Translations under genes and position numbers: made by a program
Shown: in pieces, positions 164-15,198 of the stretch
Position numbering within the stretch: the first letter of the stretch is position 1
Layout of the letters: the number at the start of each line of letters is the position of its first letter
Source of the DNA: a virus
Taxonomy: Duplodnaviria; Heunggongvirae; Uroviricota; Caudoviricetes
Virus record (IMG/VR): IMGVR_UViG_2619619126_000011
Reading direction: 5' to 3' (one strand)
DNA length: 16,729 nt
Notes under the pieces: model-generated
The model's input: only the letters and a program-made list of their open reading frames with translations
Database searches by the model: none
What the model was told of the DNA's origin: nothing

Positions 164-1276
164 TTAGTTCTTCTTTTCGGATCCGGCACTTCTGGGGGGG
201 AAATCCAGCGATGGCTGGATTATGTCGTCAATTAAAAATGCGGCGAGTAGATTAGCAAATATCCACGCTTTCGCGAGTTCAGGTTCCTTTGCACGCAAAG
301 CATCCAGGTGCAGCAAACTTTTGAGCCGCTTAAAAGCCAGTTCAATTTGCCATCGCAGACGGTAACAATCAGCCACTTGCTCTGCTGAATATTCATCTTC
401 CGGTAATGATGTTAGCAATAGCACATGGCCCGCTGCTTCCAGCGTTTCCGCCTGAACTACTCGTCCTTTTCGACGATTCTCGCTGAGCAGTCGGGTTTTA
501 CTGATTAATGCTTTTTCGGGAGGAAGTGATACGGCAATGAGACGTGCCGGAAAGGGAGCTCCGGCTTTTTTATTACCTGAATTGCCTATCATTACAGTGG
601 TTTCACCGTTCTTACCGCAATCCAGCCCGCGCAGAAAACCCATCATGTCAAAGCGCATTCCTTCTGCAGTTAACCAGCGCAATCCTCGCCAGTGAACCCG
701 GACGATATAATCAGCTTCTCCAAAAGCAAGTGAGCGGATACATTCGGGACGCGAACCGAATCCCCGGTCAGCAATGCGTATCTCGTCTGCCGTTTGCGCA
801 AATCGGTCCAGCCGTTCAGCGTCTCTGCTGTCGGTTAGCTCAAAATCAGTGAACTGACAGGTATGAGGATCATATCCCATATGTAGTCGCCATTCAGCGC
901 TGCCGCCCCCGGGCGCACTGATTGCTGTTCCATCGACAAGACGCAATCTCTTTCCGCTTGTACAACCCGTAACTGCGGCGCGTACAGCAAGTGTTTGTGC
1001 GGCAAGTATGCCAAACCAGTCGGCGGCATTCCGCAGCCGCTTCAGGAGAGCCACGTCAGATAATGTTGCAACGTCATGGAGCTGAGCCCATGCAGTGACT
1101 TCACGTAATGACATCCCCCCGGGGCCGTAAGCCAGCCCCAGACGTAGCAGAGTTGCAGCATCACGAATTTCGCGGCGGCGGGTTAGAGCCCCGGCATTAC
1201 GTGCCGAAGTATCCAGTTCTTCGGGCTTACCAATATGGGCCAGAATTGCTGACCAGTTATCGTGAGAGTAATTCAT
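164..1276 (-). CDS. insL: IS186 transposase InsL (IS4-family DDE transposase), 370 aa
   Basis: ORF starting at ATG 1276 (MNYSHDNWSAILAHIGKPEELDTSARNAGAL...), matching the InsL N-terminus as I recall it. C-terminal YRLRWQIELAFKRLKS fits the IS4-family Y-R-E-K signature. The ORF-track start at GTG 1282 is two codons upstream. Confidence 0.9.
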   Translation of the reverse strand: MNYSHDNWSAILAHIGKPEELDTSARNAGALTRRREIRDAATLLRLGLAYGPGGMSLREVTAWAQLHDVATLSDVALLKRLRNAADWFGILAAQTLAVRAAVTGCTSGKRLRLVDGTAISAPGGGSAEWRLHMGYDPHTCQFTDFELTDSRDAERLDRFAQTADEIRIADRGFGSRPECIRSLAFGEADYIVRVHWRGLRWLTAEGMRFDMMGFLRGLDCGKNGETTVMIGNSGNKKAGAPFPARLIAVSLPPEKALISKTRLLSENRRKGRVVQAETLEAAGHVLLLTSLPEDEYSAEQVADCYRLRWQIELAFKRLKSLLHLDALRAKEPELAKAWIFANLLAAFLIDDIIQPSLDFPPRSAGSEKKN

Positions 1277-1308
1277 CGGCACGTTAAATCATATCAGGCG
1301 TAATACCA

Positions 1309-1353: not shown

Positions 1354-1509
1354 TTACTCCCCAAGTTCGTAAGCTGTGAAGACAGCGACCTCCGTCTGGT
1401 CGGTTCGGATTCGTACCTCGCAGAGGTCTTTCCTCGTTACCAGTACCGTCACTATAACGGTTAAACAGATGACGATCAGGGCGACTAACATCGCCTTTTG
1501 CTGCTTCAT
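1354..1509 (-). CDS. Hok/Gef-family type I toxin (small membrane-depolarising peptide), 51 aa
   Basis: MKQQKAMLVALIVICLTVIVTVLVTRKDLCEVRIRTDQTEVAVFTAYELGE: one TM helix followed by the conserved RKDLCEV and TEVAVFTAYE motifs of HokC/HokD (RelF) as I recall them. ATG at 1509 is preceded by an AGGAGAAG RBS. Confidence 0.85.
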   Translation of the reverse strand: MKQQKAMLVALIVICLTVIVTVLVTRKDLCEVRIRTDQTEVAVFTAYELGE

Positions 1510-1566
1510 AGCCTGCTTCTCCTTGCCTTTCGGCACGTAAGAGGCTAACCTACATGTGCAAAGCAT
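1354..1566 (-). CDS. mok-like reading frame (in-frame upstream extension of hok, needed for hok translation in hok/sok systems)
   Basis: 70-codon frame MLCTCRLASYVPKGKEKQAMKQQ... with the same layout I recall for K-12 MokC, where Hok is the C-terminal 50 residues. The frame begins with a non-ATG start at 1566. Confidence 0.45.
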   Translation of the reverse strand: MLCTCRLASYVPKGKEKQAMKQQKAMLVALIVICLTVIVTVLVTRKDLCEVRIRTDQTEVAVFTAYELGE

Positions 1567-1768
1567 GAAATTGGCCTCAGATTAATGTTAAGCGTCTTGC
1601 CGGATGCGTAATGTTAACTGGGGCTTTTCTCTATCTGCCTTTGATGTTCATGCCCGAGGCAGATAGCCTCAAGTATCCGCAGCTATTTGTCTGCTGTTAC
1701 CACCTACCTGCGCCAATCACTGACTCTACAAAGATCTATCCGCGATAACATTTTGAGTTTAAGAACTT

Positions 1769-1797
1769 TTGCGTACGCACCAAAAGATGCATATACT
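1769..1797 (+). promoter_or_regulatory. Putative sigma70 promoter for the two-gene operon (TTGCGT -35, 17-bp spacer, TATACT -10)
   Basis: TTGCGT at 1769-1774 and TATACT at 1792-1797, about 40 bp upstream of the GGAG RBS and ATG at 1839. Sequence pattern only. Confidence 0.3.
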
Positions 1798-1838: not shown

Positions 1839-2897
1839 ATGAGTTTCCTTTCTGAACAAGACGTACAAAATTTAGTCATTAATAAAATGATCTTTCACGT
1901 TGTAGGTAAGAATCTTGAAGCACCGACACTTCTCAAAGAAATAAAACCAGTTCAGCATGTGGATTTTTTTCTTGAACGTATCAAATCTTCACTGAAAGGA
2001 AATCTTTTCACTTTTCTGGAGAATTCAAATACCGAAAGAATCCTGCGTATCATTAGAGATAAAGCAGATGCTGAAGCTAATTGTTTTACAGAACAATCGA
2101 AGCTACTGGCCAGTGATTTTCAGTCACACCATTCTAGCGGTAACACGAGTATGGGATGCTTTTTCTTATTTGAATTGGTTTCAGATAAGGAAAAATTCTA
2201 TGCAATTATAAAATACGATAATGAAGATGTGGTTCGTTATGTTCTTGACGAAAAGTTATCTGAAGAACAAATGCCTACTTTAGAAAGATTTCATGAAACT
2301 TTCGTAAAAAAAGCTGAGGCAATGCAAAAAATAGCGTTAATTCAACTTGATCCAAGTGGGAAAGGCGGGAAAGTTATTGTAAAAGACAGGAGTAAAAGAA
2401 CCAATATTTCAGGATATTTTAAAGGCTTCTTAAATGTTAAAAGAGTCAACTCTGAAATTGAACTTTGCAATAAGCTTATTGATGCGCTGAAAATAACCTT
2501 CAAAAGGCATAAAGAATTATTGCCAGAGTCAATTCAAAAAAGCGGCGTAAATAAAATATATGAAGTTTTAAGCAGAGCTGATTTCGAATATAATCCTGAA
2601 GATGCTTCTCCGTTATTGACCAGCATTTTTGGGCCGTTAGATGAAAAATCACCAATTCTCAACACATTCAAAACTCAAACAAAAAATGCTGGTATTGAAG
2701 GCGAATCCTTTACTATAAAAGCAGATGGCATTCATAAACCACCAAGACGAAAAATTGAAACTGCAGAAAGTGTAGTAATTAGTTATAATGAAGATGACCG
2801 TCCAGAAATAAGAAACTTAGATGATGGGCGAAAACAAATTATTGTTACTACTGCGAGGATTATTACTGATGACATCGATACTTCAAAAAATCGATGA
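1839..2897 (+). CDS. Hypothetical protein, 352 aa, soluble; gene A of the low-GC two-gene operon, with a tentative by-eye resemblance to the NdpA/YejK (NA37) nucleoid-associated protein family
   Basis: ATG at 1839 preceded by GGAG (1830-1833). The long ORF is about 30% G+C, sampled by hand on 60-nt lines. No catalytic motif recognised. The NdpA resemblance rests on short patterns such as G-F-LF and Y-FKG and is not a search result. Confidence 0.8.
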   Translation: MSFLSEQDVQNLVINKMIFHVVGKNLEAPTLLKEIKPVQHVDFFLERIKSSLKGNLFTFLENSNTERILRIIRDKADAEANCFTEQSKLLASDFQSHHSSGNTSMGCFFLFELVSDKEKFYAIIKYDNEDVVRYVLDEKLSEEQMPTLERFHETFVKKAEAMQKIALIQLDPSGKGGKVIVKDRSKRTNISGYFKGFLNVKRVNSEIELCNKLIDALKITFKRHKELLPESIQKSGVNKIYEVLSRADFEYNPEDASPLLTSIFGPLDEKSPILNTFKTQTKNAGIEGESFTIKADGIHKPPRRKIETAESVVISYNEDDRPEIRNLDDGRKQIIVTTARIITDDIDTSKNR

Positions 2898-4302
2898 GTC
2901 TATACAGGCGTCAAGGAAAGACCCTGAATTTTTGGCATCAGAATCAATAAAAAATGATTCTGCGCGCGTTCTAATTTCTGCCAAAATGGACAAAGATGCA
3001 CTCATTCTTTGGCAGTACGTTTACGAAAACGTACCAAATTGGATTGAAATTACTGTTAAAGATGACTGTAATGATGAAGTAAAACCATCGTCATGCAGTG
3101 AAGGTGATAAACTTAACATTACGCTAAAATGCATTGCATTCGAAAATAACAGGTATATTTTTACGCTCGAAGGGTGGAATGTTTTTCTACACAATGATGA
3201 TTTAGTATCAATAACCAATAAAGTGAATATTCTCGGTTTGAAACATGGATTTGAAACTTTAGGATATTCTGTTGAGCCATGGAACCATGCTCCAGAAAAA
3301 ATTGAATCTAATGAAACCGTACGAACTTCAATCAATTTACAGAGCTACGTTAAATTCTATTCTAGTGAGTTCATGCCTGCATCTGATATAGCTCCTTGGG
3401 TACTTTATAAAATGCCTGAGGCAGAGGACAACTTTTTCAAAAAATGGTTACAAGTTTCCTGCAATATGCTTTGTCGCACTCTCGTTAATGAATTATTAGC
3501 AGATGAAAAGAAATCAATTTGTTTAACTGGAAAGCCACCAAAAAAATTAATTTATGGAGATCCAGACATTCTGCTTTCCGACTATTCAGTTTTACAAACT
3601 GTAATAAACTGGATCTTTATTGAGGGCAATGAGATTGAACTCAAACATACTTTCTTCACAAGTGAGTTAGCACGAGAATGGCCAGAGTATGTATCCTTCT
3701 GTGAGGGTTTACCAAAAAAACTCCCTATGGCCTTTGAGTCAGCAAAATTACTATATAAGGCCCACATTCGCGCTAGCAGCAGAGAGACTATTAAATCTCT
3801 GTCCGATCTAAGGAAAACCTTAGCTGAAGACACGCAAAAAATAATAAGTCAGTCTAAAGACATCACATCCGCTCTTTGGAAAGATCTGGCTCTGGTTATA
3901 AGTCTATTTGCAATAAAATATGCGCTAGACGCATCAAAGATTAATATAACCAATAACATATTCCCATATATGTTCTTCGCGTTATCTATATATATTTTTA
4001 TATCTCAGGTTACAACTCTCTTCATAAATAAAAATTACTTTAAGATACTTGATAATACTAGGCTAGTCTGGAGAGATAAACTATATGGTTTTCTTGATGA
4101 TACTGACTATGAGAATCTTGCAGTCACACCATTAAGAGAAGCATACAAAGCTTATCAGATTATAGCCACATTCGTTGTGATTCTGACTTTGCTGATTTCA
4201 TTTATAATGATCATATTAGGATTCTCAATGCTTGATGAACATGCTACGAATGCAATTACCTCTTGGCTCAGTTCTCACTTAATCAATAGTTACTGTAGTT
4301 AA
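2869..4302 (+). CDS. Hypothetical protein, ~477 aa, with a soluble N-terminal region and 2-3 C-terminal transmembrane helices; gene B of the operon
   Basis: Start ATG 2869 is chosen for the GAGGA 9 nt upstream; it overlaps the gene A stop by 29 nt. The alternative start is ATGATG at 2821. Hydrophobic stretches LALVISLFAIKYAL, IFPYMFFALSIYIFISQVTTLFI and YQIIATFVVILTLLISFIMIILGFSML lie near the C-terminus. AT-rich like gene A. Confidence 0.8.
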   Translation: MTSILQKIDESIQASRKDPEFLASESIKNDSARVLISAKMDKDALILWQYVYENVPNWIEITVKDDCNDEVKPSSCSEGDKLNITLKCIAFENNRYIFTLEGWNVFLHNDDLVSITNKVNILGLKHGFETLGYSVEPWNHAPEKIESNETVRTSINLQSYVKFYSSEFMPASDIAPWVLYKMPEAEDNFFKKWLQVSCNMLCRTLVNELLADEKKSICLTGKPPKKLIYGDPDILLSDYSVLQTVINWIFIEGNEIELKHTFFTSELAREWPEYVSFCEGLPKKLPMAFESAKLLYKAHIRASSRETIKSLSDLRKTLAEDTQKIISQSKDITSALWKDLALVISLFAIKYALDASKINITNNIFPYMFFALSIYIFISQVTTLFINKNYFKILDNTRLVWRDKLYGFLDDTDYENLAVTPLREAYKAYQIIATFVVILTLLISFIMIILGFSMLDEHATNAITSWLSSHLINSYCS

Positions 4303-4329
4303 TTTAAGGCGAGAGAAACTCGCCTTAAA
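4303..4329. terminator. Hairpin between the convergent gene B and Q-like gene (11-bp stem TTTAAGGCGAG / CTCGCCTTAAA, 5-nt loop)
   Basis: Perfect inverted repeat seen directly, lying between the gene B stop (4300-4302) and the Q-like stop (4333-4335). No clean U-tract follows the GC core on either strand, so intrinsic terminator function is uncertain. Confidence 0.4.
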
Positions 4330-4332
4330 AAA

Positions 4333-4851
4333 TCAACGGTAATAGATACAACCTGCAATAAATCCCATTGCCATTTGCATTTTTTTCCTTATTTTACCAT
4401 CTGAACATTCGTTTATCTTAGCTAAACAACGCAATGAAACTCCCATAACAAAATGAGCGATAATTAACTCATAGTCATCTATCCTATATTGTTTAAGCCT
4501 CAACATGCAGGTATCAATTATACCCCCTTCATCATTGCTGCACTGACGACGTGATTTTTTACCATGAGGAACAACATTTTTATATTTATCAGCTATTTCC
4601 TGCCAATCAATAGAACTATTTTCAGCTACAGCCCAGGCTCCCCAACCGTCCAAAATATCATATATATTAGCATTGCTATCTACCTGTTTTTTATATTCTT
4701 TTTTGAATCGCGCAAGAAGCATCCTAGCCATCGTTATTATTTCTATACTTGTAACTGATTCATAAGCATCAGGAGAAATAATTCTCCCATCACTTAATGC
4801 CCCATCACTAAGATTTGCTATTTCCAATAATCGTTCTTTAGTTATTTCCAT
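4333..4851 (-). CDS. Phage late antitermination protein Q family (QuuD-like), 172 aa, with an N-terminal extension
   Basis: WGAWA...RRQCSNDEGGIID...YELIIAHFVMGVSLRCLAK..CSDGKIRKKMQMAMGFI aligns by eye to E. coli QuuD as I recall it (WGAWA, RPQC and CSDG.IGKRLQ motifs). ATG 4851 has a GGAG RBS. Unlike the flanking prophage genes it is about 33% G+C. Confidence 0.65.
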   Translation of the reverse strand: MEITKERLLEIANLSDGALSDGRIISPDAYESVTSIEIITMARMLLARFKKEYKKQVDSNANIYDILDGWGAWAVAENSSIDWQEIADKYKNVVPHGKKSRRQCSNDEGGIIDTCMLRLKQYRIDDYELIIAHFVMGVSLRCLAKINECSDGKIRKKMQMAMGFIAGCIYYR

Positions 4852-5011
4852 TATTATCTCCACCGCCTTTTCGGGCGGCCTCCTGATGATTTGAGAGTGC
4901 AGGAATTCCTCCGGTTAAGGACTCTATTTTATTCACAGTGCTGAATTTAATTATTCAGATTTGGGTTATGCTTTCTCTTTCACTTCACCAAGTTCCGATT
5001 ATTAATTTGGC

Positions 5012-9417: not shown

Positions 9418-9573
9418 ATGCAAAAAATCGACCTCGGCAACAACGAATCCCTGGTGTGCGGCGTGTTCCCCAACCAGGATGGAACGTTCACTGCCATGAC
9501 GTATACCAAAAGCAAAACATTTAAAACCGAAACTGGTGCGCGCCGATGGTTGGAGAAGCACACAGTAAGCTAA
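9418..9573 (+). CDS. ydaF: Small Rac prophage protein YdaF, 51 aa
   Basis: Translating to MQKIDLGNNESLVCGVFPNQDGTFTAMTYTKSKTFKTETGARRWLEKHTVS. Its 3' end overlaps the sieB 3' end by 4 bp, convergently. The RBS is weak. Confidence 0.65.
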   Translation: MQKIDLGNNESLVCGVFPNQDGTFTAMTYTKSKTFKTETGARRWLEKHTVS

Positions 9574-10058
9574 CGATTAAAACGTCTACTCCTGCTGTTC
9601 CAGAATAACTTCATAAAATGGGAGTATTTTTCGGTGACGAGATAATAAGAACAGTTTGCGCTATCACTCTGATGTTGAATGATGCCCTTCCGTTCTAATT
9701 TTTTCATAACCGGGTTACGGCAAGGAGAAGTGATAATAAGATTTCCTGTTTTAAGGAAATCTTTAAATACAGCGATTTCTTTCTCAGATAAACGAAGCAA
9801 TACTCGTTGCTCTGGTAGTAATGAATAATGCTTTTGAATATGTGCTCGCAATCTTGTGAAGGAAATGGCGACCACGAAAGAAAAGGCAAAAACGATAATC
9901 TGAAAGAGCCAAGGTATTTCAGTATAAGCATTGAATGCGACAGTAAACTCTTTCGGTATCAGCCAGAGAGTGAGACCAAAAATGATAATCGTATACATAA
10001 GTCTTTCGAGTGGCTCGTTAGCAAAAAGTTTCAACAATGGAGTAAATACATCCAACAT
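9570..10058 (-). CDS. sieB: Superinfection exclusion protein SieB, 162 aa
   Basis: ATG at 10058 (MLDVFTPLLKLF...) followed by hydrophobic helices. Length matches K-12 SieB. The ORF-track N-terminal extension to 10181 is not supported. Confidence 0.85.
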   Translation of the reverse strand: MLDVFTPLLKLFANEPLERLMYTIIIFGLTLWLIPKEFTVAFNAYTEIPWLFQIIVFAFSFVVAISFTRLRAHIQKHYSLLPEQRVLLRLSEKEIAVFKDFLKTGNLIITSPCRNPVMKKLERKGIIQHQSDSANCSYYLVTEKYSHFMKLFWNSRSRRFNR

Positions 10059-10499
10059 ATCAATAACTCTCAACTGTAAGGGTATTGAAATGTTAACACA
10101 AGCTCTCGCTGTAGGGGTATAGCCGAGACCACCGAAGCCCGGAGGTGGTGAAATAAAACCGGGCACAACACGAAGGCGCATTTCCGATATCCATAAAGAG
10201 TCGGTCTTGTCTGTTAAATTTAAATGGTGGGAGTGCGCCTCCGGTTGTAAATAACGACATTGCTGTGTGTAGTCCTGGCGGCATCAGTTTTTTTCTTGAA
10301 GTTCGGCTGATGTCCGCCCTTTTTAAAGTGAATTTTGTGATGCGGTGAATGCGGCTAAGCGCACGTGGCACAGTTAAAAGTCATGTTAGTCCTTATTGGT
10401 TTGGGTGGGAAAGCCGACTGTAATTGTTAACTGGTTGCAGTCACCTGGAGGCACCAGGCACCGCATCAACAAAGTTCATTTGTAAAAATGGAGATAATT

Positions 10500-10721: not shown

Positions 10722-10891
10722 TGACTAAGAAAATAAAATGTGCTTGCCACCTTTGCAAAAAAGACGTTGAAGAAAGCAAAGCTATTGAAAGAATGCTTCA
10801 CTTCATGCACGGGATTTTATCAAAAGACGAACCGAGAAAATATTGCAGTGAAGCTTGTGCCGAAAAAGACCAGATGGCACATGAACTTTAA
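10721..10891 (+). CDS. ydaE: YdaE, small zinc-ribbon-like protein, 56 aa
   Basis: ATG overlaps the kilR stop (TGATG) and translates to [56 protein letters not shown]. Below the ORF-track cut-off. Confidence 0.7.
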   Translation: MTKKIKCACHLCKKDVEESKAIERMLHFMHGILSKDEPRKYCSEACAEKDQMAHEL

Positions 10892-10965
10892 TTAATTGAC
10901 TATTCGAAACTGAATTTATGCCAGAAATGGCAGGTATTCGCTCAACCTTAATTAAGGAGAAAAAC

Positions 10966-11241
10966 ATGATTACCAATTATGAAGCCACTGTTGTAACTAC
11001 CGATGACATTGTTCACGAGGTGAATCTGGAAGGAAAGCGCATTGGCTACGTAATTAAAACAGAAAATAAAGAAACCCCATTCACTGTGGTTGATATCGAT
11101 GGTCCATCAGGCAACGTAAAAACACTTGATGAAGGTGTCAAAAAAATGTGCCTGGTGCATATCGGAAAGAATCTGCCCGCAGAAAAAAAAGCCGAATTTC
11201 TGGCAACTCTAATTGCAATGAAATTAAAAGGTGAAATCTGA
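10966..11241 (+). CDS. racC: RacC, 91 aa
   Basis: ATG 10966 preceded by an AAGGAG RBS (MITNYEATVVTTDDIVHEV...). Length and position as in K-12 Rac. Confidence 0.85.
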   Translation: MITNYEATVVTTDDIVHEVNLEGKRIGYVIKTENKETPFTVVDIDGPSGNVKTLDEGVKKMCLVHIGKNLPAEKKAEFLATLIAMKLKGEI

Positions 11242-11246
11242 AAGAA

Positions 11247-11271
11247 ATAGCCTGCGTATGGCGCAGGCTAT
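11247..11271 (+). other. Strong hairpin between racC and recE (10-bp stem ATAGCCTGCG / CGCAGGCTAT, 5-nt loop)
   Basis: Perfect inverted repeat starting 6 bp after the racC stop. No U-tract follows, so it is not a canonical intrinsic terminator; it may be an attenuator, an RNA stability element or a protein site. Confidence 0.35.
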
Positions 11272-11342
11272 GAACAGTGTGTATCCGGCAAGATCATTCA
11301 CTGAACAAAACGAATTTTAATCTGAGTTGAGGTTAAAAAACA

Positions 11343-13943
11343 ATGAGCACAAAACCACTCTTCCTGTTACGGAAAGCGAAAAAATCATCCGGTGAACCTG
11401 ACGTCGTCCTGTGGGCAAGCAACGATTTTGAATCGACCTGTGCCACTCTGGACTACCTGATCGTTAAGTCAGGTAAAAAACTGAGCAGCTATTTTAAAGC
11501 TGTTGCCACGAATTTTCCTGTCGTTAATGACCTGCCCGCTGAAGGTGAGATCGATTTTACCTGGAGTGAACGCTATCAACTCAGCAAAGACTCCATGACA
11601 TGGGAACTAAAACCGGGAGCAGCACCAGACAACGCTCACTATCAAGGCAATACCAACGTCAACGGCGAAGACATGACTGAGATTGAGGAGAATATGCTAC
11701 TCCCAATTTCTGGCCAGGAACTGCCCATTCGTTGGCTTGCTCAACACGGCAGCGAAAAACCGGTAACGCACGTTTCACGCGACGGACTCCAGGCATTACA
11801 CATTGCTCGGGCTGAAGAACTACCGGCTGTTACTGCCCTGGCTGTTTCCCACAAAACCAGCCTGCTCGACCCGCTGGAAATTCGCGAACTCCACAAACTG
11901 GTTCGTGACACTGACAAAGTTTTCCCTAATCCTGGTAATTCAAACCTGGGACTGATAACTGCTTTTTTCGAAGCATACCTGAACGCTGACTACACCGATC
12001 GAGGACTGCTGACAAAAGAGTGGATGAAGGGTAATCGTGTTTCACACATCACTCGCACGGCTTCCGGTGCTAATGCTGGCGGCGGAAACCTCACCGATCG
12101 CGGCGAAGGTTTCGTACACGATCTGACGTCACTGGCGCGCGACGTAGCCACTGGCGTACTGGCCCGTTCAATGGATCTGGACATCTATAACCTTCATCCG
12201 GCACACGCTAAACGCATTGAGGAAATTATCGCTGAAAATAAACCGCCCTTTTCTGTTTTCCGCGACAAATTCATCACCATGCCTGGCGGGCTGGATTATT
12301 CCCGCGCCATCGTGGTTGCGTCCGTAAAAGAAGCACCAATTGGGATCGAGGTCATCCCCGCGCACGTCACTGAATATCTGAACAAAGCACTGACTGAAAC
12401 CGATCATGCCAACCCTGATCCGGAAATCGTGGATATTGCCTGCGGTCGCTCCTCTGCCCCGATGCCGCAGCGAGTAACAGAAGAAGGAAAACAGGATGAT
12501 GAAGAAAAACCGCAACCATCTGGAACAACGGCAGTTGAACAGGGAGAGGCTGAAACAATGGAACCGGACGCAACTGAACATCATCAGGACACGCAGCCGC
12601 TGGATGCTCAGTCACAGGTAAATTCTGTTGATGCGAAATATCAGGAACTGCGGGCAGAACTCCATGAAGCCCGGAAAAACATTCCATCAAAAAATCCTGT
12701 CGATGCCGATAAATTGCTTGCTGCATCACGTGGTGAATTTGTTGACGGAATTAGCGACCCGAACGATCCGAAATGGGTAAAGGGGATCCAGACTCGCGAT
12801 TGTGTGTACCAGAACCAGCCAGAAACGGAAAAAACCAGCCCAGATATGAATCAACCTGAGCCAGTAGTGCAACAGGAACCGGAAATAGCCTGCAATGCCT
12901 GCGGCCAGACTGGCGGGGGTAACTGCCCTGACTGTGGGGCGGTGATGGGCGACGCAACATACCAGGAAACATTCGATGAAGAGAGTCAGGTTGAAGCTAA
13001 GGAAAATGATCCGGAGGAAATGGAAGGCGCTGAACATCCGCACAATGAGAATGCTGGCAGCGATCCGCATCGCGATTGCAGTGATGAAACTGGCGAAGTC
13101 GCAGATCCCGTAATCGTAGAAGACATAGAGCCAGGTATTTATTACGGAATTTCGAATGAGAATTACCACGCGGGTCCCGGTATCAGTAAGTCTCAGCTCG
13201 ATGACATTGCTGATACTCCGGCACTATATTTGTGGCGTAAAAATGCCCCCGTGGACACCACAAAGACAAAAACGCTCGATTTAGGAACTGCTTTCCACTG
13301 CCGGGTACTTGAACCGGAAGAATTCAGTAACCGCTTTATCGTAGCACCTGAATTTAACCGCCGTACAAACGCCGGAAAAGAAGAAGAGAAAGCGTTTCTG
13401 ATGGAATGCGCAAGCACAGGAAAAACGGTTATCACTGCGGAAGAAGGCCGGAAAATTGAACTCATGTATCAAAGCGTTATGGCTTTGCCGCTGGGGCAAT
13501 GGCTTGTTGAAAGCGCCGGACACGCTGAATCATCAATTTACTGGAAAGATCCTGAAACAGGAATTTTGTGTCGGTGCCGTCCGGACAAAATTATCCCTGA
13601 ATTTCACTGGATCATGGACGTGAAAACTACGGCGGATATTCAACGATTCAAAACCGCTTATTACGACTACCGCTATCACGTTCAGGATGCATTCTACAGT
13701 GACGGTTATGAAGCACAGTTTGGAGTGCAGCCAACTTTCGTTTTTCTGGTTGCCAGCACAACTATTGAATGCGGACGTTATCCGGTTGAAATTTTCATGA
13801 TGGGCGAAGAAGCAAAACTGGCAGGTCAACAGGAATATCACCGCAATCTGCGAACCCTGTCTGACTGCCTGAATACCGATGAATGGCCAGCTATTAAGAC
13901 ATTATCACTGCCCCGCTGGGCTAAGGAATATGCAAATGACTAA
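11343..13943 (+). CDS. recE: RecE (exonuclease VIII), full length, 866 aa
   Basis: [30 protein letters not shown]... Length matches K-12 RecE. It sits directly upstream of recT with the stop overlapping the recT start. Confidence 0.95.
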
Positions 13944-14745
13944 GCAACCACCAATCGCAAAAGCCGATCTGCAAAAAACTCAGGGAAACCGTGCACCAGC
14001 AGCAGTTAAAAATAGCGACGTGATTAGTTTTATTAACCAGCCATCAATGAAAGAGCAACTGGCAGCAGCTCTTCCACGCCATATGACGGCTGAACGTATG
14101 ATCCGTATCGCCACCACAGAAATTCGTAAAGTTCCGGCGTTAGGAAACTGTGACACTATGAGTTTTGTCAGTGCGATCGTACAGTGTTCACAGCTCGGAC
14201 TTGAGCCAGGTAGCGCCCTCGGTCATGCATATTTACTGCCTTTTGGTAATAAAAACGAAAAGAGCGGTAAAAAGAACGTTCAGCTAATCATTGGCTATCG
14301 CGGCATGATTGATCTGGCTCGCCGTTCTGGTCAAATCGCCAGCCTGTCAGCCCGTGTTGTCCGTGAAGGTGACGAGTTTAGCTTCGAATTTGGCCTTGAT
14401 GAAAAGTTAATACACCGCCCGGGAGAAAACGAAGATGCCCCGGTTACCCACGTCTATGCTGTCGCAAGACTGAAAGACGGAGGTACTCAGTTTGAAGTTA
14501 TGACGCGCAAACAGATTGAGCTGGTGCGCAGCCTGAGTAAAGCTGGTAATAACGGGCCGTGGGTAACTCACTGGGAAGAAATGGCAAAGAAAACGGCTAT
14601 TCGTCGCCTGTTCAAATATCTGCCCGTATCAATTGAGATCCAGCGTGCAGTATCAATGGATGAAAAGGAACCACTGACAATCGATCCTGCAGATTCCTCT
14701 GTATTAACCGGGGAATACAGTGTAATTGATAATTCAGAGGAATAA
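13936..14745 (+). CDS. recT: RecT single-strand annealing recombinase, 269 aa
   Basis: [59 protein letters not shown]... The ATG lies within AATGACTAA, overlapping the recE stop. Confidence 0.95.
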
Positions 14746-14801
14746 TTCAGCCTGGCGGGGTAATGCACCGCCAACTTGAAATATTTTTTATGAGAAAAAT
14801 T

Positions 14802-14996
14802 ATGAGATATGACAATGTTAAACCATGTCCATTTTGTGGTTGTCCATCAGTAACGGTGAAAGCCATTTCAGGATATTACCGAGCGAAGTGTAACGGATGC
14901 GAATCCCGAACCGGTTATGGTGGAAGTGAAAAAGAAGCACTCGAAAGATGGAATAAACGAACCACTGGAAATAATAATGGAGGTGTTCATGTATAA
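14802..14996 (+). CDS. ralR: Restriction alleviation protein Lar/RalR, 64 aa
   Basis: MRYDNVKPCPFCGCPSVTVKAISGYYRAKCNGCESRTGYGGSEKEALERWNKR, with CxxC...CxxC. Position is downstream of recT as in Rac. Confidence 0.85.
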   Translation: MRYDNVKPCPFCGCPSVTVKAISGYYRAKCNGCESRTGYGGSEKEALERWNKRTTGNNNGGVHV

Positions 14997-15198
14997 AATT
15001 ACCGCCACTATTGAAAAGGAAGGTGGCACTCCTACTAACTGGACAAGATATTCAAAATCTAAACTAACGAAATCAGAATGCGAAAAAATGCTCTCAGGTA
15101 AAAAAGAAGCAGGCGTTTCCAGAGAGCAGAAAGTAAAACTGATAAATTTTAATTGCGAGAAACTTCAGTCCTCGAGAATTGCATTGTATTCAAATTAA
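14989..15198 (+). CDS. ydaC: YdaC (RcbA), 69 aa
   Basis: ATG 14989 with a GGAGGT RBS (MYKITATIEKEGGTPTNWTRYSKSKLTKSECEKMLSGKKEAG...). It overlaps the ralR 3' end. Confidence 0.8.
   Translation: MYKITATIEKEGGTPTNWTRYSKSKLTKSECEKMLSGKKEAGVSREQKVKLINFNCEKLQSSRIALYSN

Follow-up and report, generated by a model that had tools for sequence, protein, structure and literature searches.

The question raised by this locus is what a pair of overlapping genes, carried by a prophage between hok/sok and the Q antiterminator gene, does for its Escherichia coli host. The pair lies in IMG/VR virus record IMGVR_UViG_2619619126_000011, a stretch of 16,729 nt (hereafter the window), which is E. coli chromosome with a Rac-type lambdoid prophage and is 100% identical to complete E. 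coli genomes. Gene A encodes a YejK/NA37-family nucleoid-associated protein (NAP) and gene B a membrane-anchored protein. PANGU systems, described in a recent preprint, are operons of two genes, one for a YejK-like NAP (PagA) and one for an effector (PagB) (bioRxiv, April 2026; 10.64898/2026.04.06.716658). We consider it probable that A and B together are a self-contained anti-phage module of two genes, working through abortive infection and belonging to the type II PANGU kind, which the Rac-type prophage carries as cargo and which acts by the mechanism proposed below. Gene B would most likely be a PagB-type effector, switched on by NAP that is freed when an infecting phage brings about degradation of the chromosome. 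The operon is laid out as follows.

1769-1797, plus strand: possible sigma-70 promoter of the A-B operon (TTGCGT, 17-nt spacer, TATACT), read from the sequence

1839-2897, plus strand: gene A, YejK/NA37-family NAP of 352 amino acids (aa) (RefSeq WP_001586997.1)

2855-2859, plus strand: GAGGA, a Shine-Dalgarno-like sequence serving gene B, located within the 3'-terminal part of gene A and 9 nt before the ATG at 2869

2869-2897, plus strand: overlap of the two genes, 29 nt, B being read in the +1 frame of A

2869-4302, plus strand: gene B, membrane-anchored protein of 477 aa (RefSeq WP_001586996.1), proposed PagB-like effector

The product of gene A matches the Pfam family NA37 (PF04245) with E=1.2e-12 over model positions 1-316 of 325, at 48.3 bits against a cut-off of 24.6. 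Because this score is low for the family, A is regarded as a divergent NA37/YejK member. The Prokaryotic Genome Annotation Pipeline (PGAP) names it 'nucleoid-associated protein', and a GGAG lies 5 nt before its ATG. We propose that A is a DNA-bound sensor comparable to PagA. The promoter upstream of A is a weak candidate, missed by the consensus scan because its -35 hexamer matches at only three of six positions.

Gene B is a real gene and not a chance frame. A stop-free stretch of 477 codons has a chance probability of ~4.5e-16 at 34.9% GC, and homologues of B form 101 clusters at 90% identity and 668 clusters at 50% identity (E<=1e-3). The 150 best of these 668 clusters are mostly 440-530 aa long and match end to end; shorter entries match the profile in part. 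In the list of open reading frames (ORFs) the frame containing B runs from 2821 to 4302 on the plus strand, and an earlier reading of the window, made from the sequence only, had left the start codon ambiguous between 2869 and 2821. It can now be placed at 2869. Homologues, with lengths of 445-530 aa, align from M1 (MTSILQKI), RefSeq/PGAP sets the start of WP_001586996.1 at the base equivalent to 2869, and the GAGGA stands 9 nt upstream of it. No Shine-Dalgarno sequence lies before 2821, and the extra residues that a start there would add, MMGENKLLLLLRGLLL, have no counterpart in any aligned homologue. The start at 2821 is ruled out by the homologue alignment, the PGAP call and the missing Shine-Dalgarno sequence.

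The partnership of the two genes is strict. At all 66 loci compared, and at all nine viral loci (75 in total), a homologue of A lies directly upstream of the homologue of B and overlaps it. The 66 loci span Enterobacterales, Pseudomonas, Methylomonas, Rhizobiales, Sphingomonadales, Acetobacteraceae and others, and the viral loci include that of an isolated phage, Thiobacimonas phage vB_ThpS-P1. With the start of B placed by profile alignment, the overlap measures 14-44 nt and is always of length 3k+2 (63 of 63 genome loci), 29 and 35 nt being the commonest values. In the window the ATG of B is embedded in the codons for a conserved Asp-Asp of A (GAT GAC), and this GATGAC arrangement is typical among homologues. 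Pairwise identities of A and of B correlate with r=0.964, which indicates that the two genes are passed on together and diverge together.

With the end of gene A at 2897 and the start of gene B at 2869, the overlap is the 29 nt that the sequence-only reading had reported. From this overlap it had deduced coupled stoichiometric expression. The coupling is supported by the overlap kept in 63 of 63 loci and by the correlated divergence; the stoichiometric part goes beyond the data, and in the preprint the one solved PagA-PagB complex, which is of type I, is 2:1 (10.64898/2026.04.06.716658). A possibility is that the family-wide overlap sets a low B:A ratio, which would prevent harm by the effector as long as A is not set free in bulk. 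A programmed frameshift joining A and B was considered and rejected. The heptamer A_AAA_AAT lies at 2884-2890, in the frame of A and just before its stop codon; it is probably incidental, because it shifts to the wrong frame for B and is found at only 6 of the 66 loci.

The product of B combines a large soluble part with C-terminal transmembrane (TM) segments, in this order.

B residues 1-304; 2869-3780, plus strand: soluble N-terminal domain, alpha/beta (1-230) followed by helices (232-303), mildly acidic

B residues 305-337; 3781-3879, plus strand: stalk helix into the membrane part, with the highest conservation in the family (SKETLKSLSDLRKTL..QK..)

B residues 338-358; 3880-3942, plus strand: questionable TM1, a marginal hydrophobic helix with a conserved K/R and a conserved D, peak 1.51

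B residues 367-387; 3967-4029, plus strand: TM2, peak 1.94, found in 31 of 32 homologues

B residues 388-429; 4030-4155, plus strand: conserved charged loop or helical hairpin, W401-R-x-K-L-Y406-G-F-L-D-D-x-D-Y

B residues 430-452; 4156-4224, plus strand: TM3, the strongest hydrophobic segment, peak 3.07, found in 31 of 32 homologues

Hydropathy (Kyte-Doolittle, 19-residue window) peaks at 3.07 (residues 431-449) and 1.94 (368-386), with a marginal peak of 1.51 (340-358). Windows before residue 335 all stay at or below 1.16, and the mean is -0.29 over residues 1-340 versus +0.64 over residues 341-477. When the protein was shuffled, a peak of at least 3.07 arose in 6 of 5000 shuffles and two separate peaks of at least 1.9 in 288 of 5000. 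TM2 and TM3 reach at least 1.6 in 31 of 32 homologues, which are 85% to 26% identical to B, and TM1 does so in only 2 of the 32. The hydrophilic N-terminal part and the two to three hydrophobic C-terminal segments noted earlier are thus both present, two of the segments being firm (TM2 and TM3) and one borderline (TM1).

An AlphaFold2 model built with the family alignment has a pLDDT of 86.6 over the full length, and a pLDDT of 93.6 with a pTM of 0.90 for residues 1-304. In this model the N-terminal part is globular; its alpha/beta region (1-230) is followed by three helices (232-303) and then by a single continuous helix of 51 residues (305-355), which leaves the soluble part and extends into the first hydrophobic segment. 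The hydrophobic segments lie in a bundle of long helices; two very long ones, 364-404 and 411-454, bear TM2 and TM3, and there is a short C-terminal helix. The suggestion that B is a soluble sensor or adaptor domain anchored to, or acting on, the inner membrane fits this confident architecture. Median counts of lysine plus arginine in the 32 homologues are 6 in the stalk, 1 in the loop 359-366, 6 in the loop 388-429 and 2 in the tail. This distribution favours three membrane passes with a cytoplasmic N-terminus, and the loop 388-429 is probably cytoplasmic. Taken together, hydropathy, the AlphaFold2 helices and the positive-inside rule suggest a topology of three TM helices, with the N-terminus in and the C-terminus out.

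Conservation is unevenly distributed along the protein. The alpha/beta region is variable (0.42) versus residues 253-337, where conservation is highest in the family (0.69) and the motifs ELKHTFLTSELAREWP, ESAxLLYKAHIR and SKETLKSLSDLRKTL are found. Within the stalk (305-337) conservation is 0.73, with T307, L311, L314, R315, L318, Q328 and W337 invariant; in the loop 388-429, W401, Y406 and Y429 are invariant in the homologue alignment. By analogy with the PANGU preprint, we propose that the N-terminal domain is a receiver that binds the product of A, and that the module at 253-337 acts as a relay, the latter being a suggestion of the present analysis. More tentatively, and with some doubt, the B family may form a novel class of membrane effectors gated by a NAP, in which docking of the NAP would cause the 253-337 module and the WRxKLYGFLDDxDY loop to open the TM helices or oligomerize them into a pore, while the alpha/beta region 1-230 would set partner specificity.

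Gene B contains no known domain that could be recognized in Pfam, PADLOC, PHROGs or NCBIfam, where nothing significant was found, and 32 members of its family gave only scattered sub-threshold matches to Pfam. No solved relative of A or B was found by sequence, and there is no convincing relative of B in the PDB. A match of B to Saf_2TM (PF18303; E=0.045 over 34 residues, 14 bits against a cut-off of 29.5) was rejected as a chance match of hydrophobic helices; it is seen in one of 32 family members. The TM effectors of CBASS and Pycsar systems, such as Saf_2TM, share the concept of a cytoplasmic receiver fused to two to four TM helices that kill by membrane disruption. B differs in having no SAVED or nucleotide-binding domain. 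RexAB of phage lambda is prophage-encoded and abortive, and its cytoplasmic, DNA-related sensor RexA is thought to activate the depolarizing membrane protein RexB. RexB is a small protein of four TM helices and lacks a large cytoplasmic receiver domain such as that of B, RexA is not an NA37 protein, and no sequence relationship of A-B to RexAB was found.

The closest likeness is to type II PANGU. In the preprint, type II systems pair a YejK-like NAP with a TM effector that has an N-terminal acidic NAP-binding domain, termed 'DMK', and a C-terminal TM domain; the operational definition is a match to the authors' HMMs for PagA and PagB (Cluster2). The type II operon PANGU-Ecu, from an 'E. coli upec' strain, protects against T4, and both genes are required. 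Its constructs are non-toxic, including each gene alone, and the growth curves resemble abortive infection. T4 escapes through mutations in denA, which encodes EndoII, a nuclease of host DNA; Pag2A-GFP leaves the nucleoid upon infection, and the N-terminal domain of Pag2B binds Pag2A at 19 nM. How Pag2A activates Pag2B 'remains to be determined', according to the authors, while the PagB partner of type I is a clearly toxic enzyme (10.64898/2026.04.06.716658).

The A-B pair resembles this description. It is a bicistronic operon in which the YejK/NA37 protein comes first, as judged by the NA37 match and the 29-nt overlap. Its partner has a mildly acidic N-terminal part and a C-terminal TM domain, the latter seen in hydropathy, in 31 of 32 homologues and in the AlphaFold2 model. 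It occurs in E. coli, and it is linked to defence genes and mobile elements, being found beside such genes and in islands, prophages, viruses and plasmids. A-B shows every feature of type II PANGU that could be examined here, except that the acidity of the N-terminal domain of B, described for type II as acidic, is modest. A setting as a prophage moron, an overlap of 14-44 nt and a conserved module equivalent to 253-337 are features for which no mention was found in the available text of the preprint (10.64898/2026.04.06.716658).

On this basis the following mechanism is proposed. In a healthy cell the product of A, a YejK-like NAP, would rest on chromosomal DNA, and B would be made by translational coupling from its start codon 29 nt inside the end of gene A. 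An infecting phage that degrades the host chromosome (in the case of T4, with EndoII) would release A, which could then bind the mildly acidic, cytoplasmic N-terminal domain of B. The signal would be relayed via the conserved helical and stalk module (B 253-337) to the two or three membrane helices. These may perturb the inner membrane, so that growth of the infected cell stops and spread of the phage is blocked. Damage to the membrane is a putative mode of action of B.

The same architecture can be read in the opposite direction. Kiwa is a two-gene defence system made up of a TM protein, KwaA, which acts as the sensor, and a DNA-binding protein, KwaB (DUF4868). Gene order and domain sizes differ from those of A-B, and Pfam lists only NA37 for gene A, DUF4868 being unmatched. 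By analogy, B could sense attachment, DNA injection or envelope stress and release or license A, which would coat DNA and block phage replication or transcription. A membrane protein combined with a DNA-binding protein suits such a reversed polarity equally well. We regard it as unlikely: neither A nor B matches any PADLOC model, those of KwaA and KwaB included. In addition, escape of T4 from type II through loss of EndoII, departure of Pag2A from the nucleoid and the toxic enzyme that partners the same kind of NAP in type I, all as given in the preprint (10.64898/2026.04.06.716658), argue for a signal that passes from the NAP to its partner.

Independently of the preprint, the supplement of DefensePredictor (Science 2026, PMC13092281) includes the exact product of gene A, WP_001586997.1, which it labels 'Predicted novel defense gene', gives a log-odds of 8.42 and locates on NZ_JSGY01000132.1. 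The same study validated DS-1 (working ID D390), a two-gene E. coli defence system made up of the YejK-domain protein WP_000355468.1 and WP_000150292.1 (PMC13092281). DS-1 is like A-B in pairing a YejK/NA37 protein with a partner whose N-terminal part is mildly acidic (net charge -9, pI 5.19) and whose C-terminal segments are weakly hydrophobic, akin to the layout of B. Homology between the two systems was rejected, with BLASTP E>0.2 for both proteins and an hhalign profile-profile probability of 0.8%. Unlike gene A, the NAP of DS-1 has an extra N-terminal part, NA37 matching residues 42-382, and its genes lie 2 nt apart where A and B overlap. DS-1 would appear to work alike without belonging to the same family. 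The chances that A-B is the very operon tested in the PANGU preprint seem roughly even to good. The NZ_JSGY accession series is that of E. coli 'upec-N' strains, which is a lead on, and not a test of, this identity.

The distribution of the pair is that of mobile cargo. The cassette has a GC content of 33-36% versus ~50% on its flanks, and among 5426 complete E. coli genomes only 29 have it; A-B is a low-GC cargo module. It is located between hok/sok and the Q antiterminator gene of the Rac-type prophage, and the annotated order in strain THO-008 is Hok/Gef, WP_001586997.1, WP_001586996.1 and then, on the opposite strand, an antiterminator Q family protein. In other E. coli prophages the place between hokD and Q is taken by another pair of genes, for a DUF6731 protein and a 159-aa protein, and this alternative content suggests that the interval between hok and Q is a hotspot for cargo or defence genes. 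In E. coli 10035776-3 (3130-4539 of the extracted locus), the DUF6731 protein has 304 aa, the 159-aa protein has no Pfam match, and slot and orientation are the same. In one genome (NZ_CM146015.1) an IS5-family, ISKpn26-like element is inserted in the A-B cassette, and in another (NZ_CM143909.1) only the 3' part of gene B is kept beside Q, matching query positions 2549-3718, which are window positions 3831-5000.

More distant relatives show the same association. An A-B pair with 62% identity again lies beside Q, in a different lambdoid prophage. In that metagenomic prophage (15968-18315 of the extracted locus) a reverse transcriptase gene (RVT_1) adjoins the gene for an 8xMP protein, and there is a second hok gene; the prophage thus holds several candidate defence cargos. 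At two different sites in the chromosome, relatives with 41-42% identity directly follow a P4-type integrase as its first cargo, and relatives are also found on ten plasmids. The 122 ORFs immediately flanking 63 A-B loci include integrases (7), NERD+UvrD (4), UvrD-helicase/GajB-like (2-3), Fic/SoFic (3), DRT-like (3), PDC-S24 (3), AbiJ (2), Abi_C (2), Mrr (2), RES (2) and AbiEii-type AAA_21 (2) proteins, these being raw counts, taken without a matched background control, that are to be read qualitatively. In a Sphingomonas sp., ~1.4 kb downstream of A-B (10794-15096 of the extracted locus), are genes for an RNase_T exonuclease, two unannotated proteins, a Multi_ubiq protein and a ThiF/E1-like protein (DUF6791), which looks like a ubiquitin-like conjugation defence cluster.

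Elsewhere in the window are the following features.

1-1323: complete insertion sequence (IS) with perfect 15-bp terminal inverted repeats at 1-15 and 1309-1323

164-1282, minus strand: DDE_Tnp_1 transposase ORF inside the IS

1354-1566, minus strand: Hok ORF of a hok/sok type I toxin-antitoxin system

1504-1678, minus strand: sok RNA (Rfam, 99 bits)

4306-4326: GC-rich hairpin, AAGGCGAG-AGAAA-CTCGCCTT, between the convergent genes B and Q, seen as an inverted repeat in the sequence

9570-10181, minus strand: SieB superinfection-exclusion protein (Pfam, E=3.6e-31)

14995-15173, minus strand: RalA small RNA of the Rac RalR/RalA type I toxin-antitoxin system (14763-15173; Rfam, 225 bits)

The IS directly adjoins hok/sok and is not present at that position in THO-008. 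The hok/sok genes (1354-1678) directly precede the A-B cassette and are encoded on the opposite strand. At the other end the hairpin marks the end of the cassette; a canonical intrinsic terminator was rejected at this place, there being no downstream T-run on either strand, and the terminator scan did not report the hairpin. Beyond Q, THO-008 has DUF977, ydaV, ydaT, sieB, kilR, recET, ralR, xisR and intR, and ttcA adjoins the end; ralR is annotated there at the position equivalent to that of RalR/RalA. The presence of sieB together with kilR, recET and ralR indicates that this Rac-type prophage holds several other host-protective or toxic modules.

The adjacency of hok/sok raises the further question of whether A-B might itself be an addiction module that stabilizes the prophage, B being a membrane toxin restrained by A and any defence at most a side effect. 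Two overlapping genes on mobile elements, one of them for a membrane protein that could be toxic, would suit such a role, and toxin-antitoxin genes occur among the neighbours of homologous loci (VapBC at one locus, RES and AbiEii elsewhere). We think this very unlikely. Gene A encodes a DNA-binding NAP of 352 aa, unlike the usual small, labile antitoxins. The IS insertion in NZ_CM146015.1 and the remnant of gene B in NZ_CM143909.1 indicate that cells can do without A or without an intact B, and the type II constructs of the preprint were reported as non-toxic even as single genes (10.64898/2026.04.06.716658).

The least probable of the alternatives considered is a non-defensive function, in which B would be a tether that does not kill the cell and would hold the nucleoid or prophage DNA, bound by A, at the membrane, for example in segregation or to exclude superinfecting phages where DNA enters. 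A NAP and a membrane anchor could physically join DNA to membrane, and the same prophage has other exclusion genes (sieB, 9570-10181). However, the patchy distribution on mobile elements, the defence-gene neighbours and the hotspot site suit immunity cargo better than a housekeeping function, and the growth curves in the preprint fit abortive infection (10.64898/2026.04.06.716658).

Some points weigh against the type II PANGU reading of A-B, in addition to the qualitative nature of the neighbour counts. The pair was set beside Pag2A and Pag2B by their published description and not by sequence alignment. The evidence for phage defence is taken from the operon of the preprint, which is perhaps another one, and membrane damage is an inference for this type of PagB. 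Since the partner in DS-1 is similarly acidic in its N-terminal part, architecture alone cannot tell which family the preprint tested. Residues 1-335 of B have a net charge of -10 and a pI of 5.2; charges in the family extend from -19 to +2 around a median of -7, and some homologues are near neutral or basic, the pI of the N-terminal part reaching 8.16. The label 'DNA mimic' for this part of B is weakly supported. The marginal hydrophobicity of TM1 makes the topology uncertain.

If the type II PANGU reading is true, the prophage gives its E. coli host an immune module whose trigger is the destruction of the host's own chromosome, not a molecule of the phage, and whose response takes place at the membrane. 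This principle of sensing was set out in the preprint (10.64898/2026.04.06.716658), and the matter of interest is the membrane effector: how the freed NAP switches on the membrane protein, and what B does to the membrane. The A-B locus is a natural, compact example of ~2.6 kb, apparently with its own promoter and set in a well-understood prophage, and it can be compared with natural alleles that are empty, replaced, disrupted by an IS or truncated. As the B family has no Pfam, NCBIfam or PADLOC model, its members are annotated as 'hypothetical protein' and are overlooked by defence-finding pipelines. A-B is probably a further member, and possibly the founding example, of the recently described type II PANGU kind.

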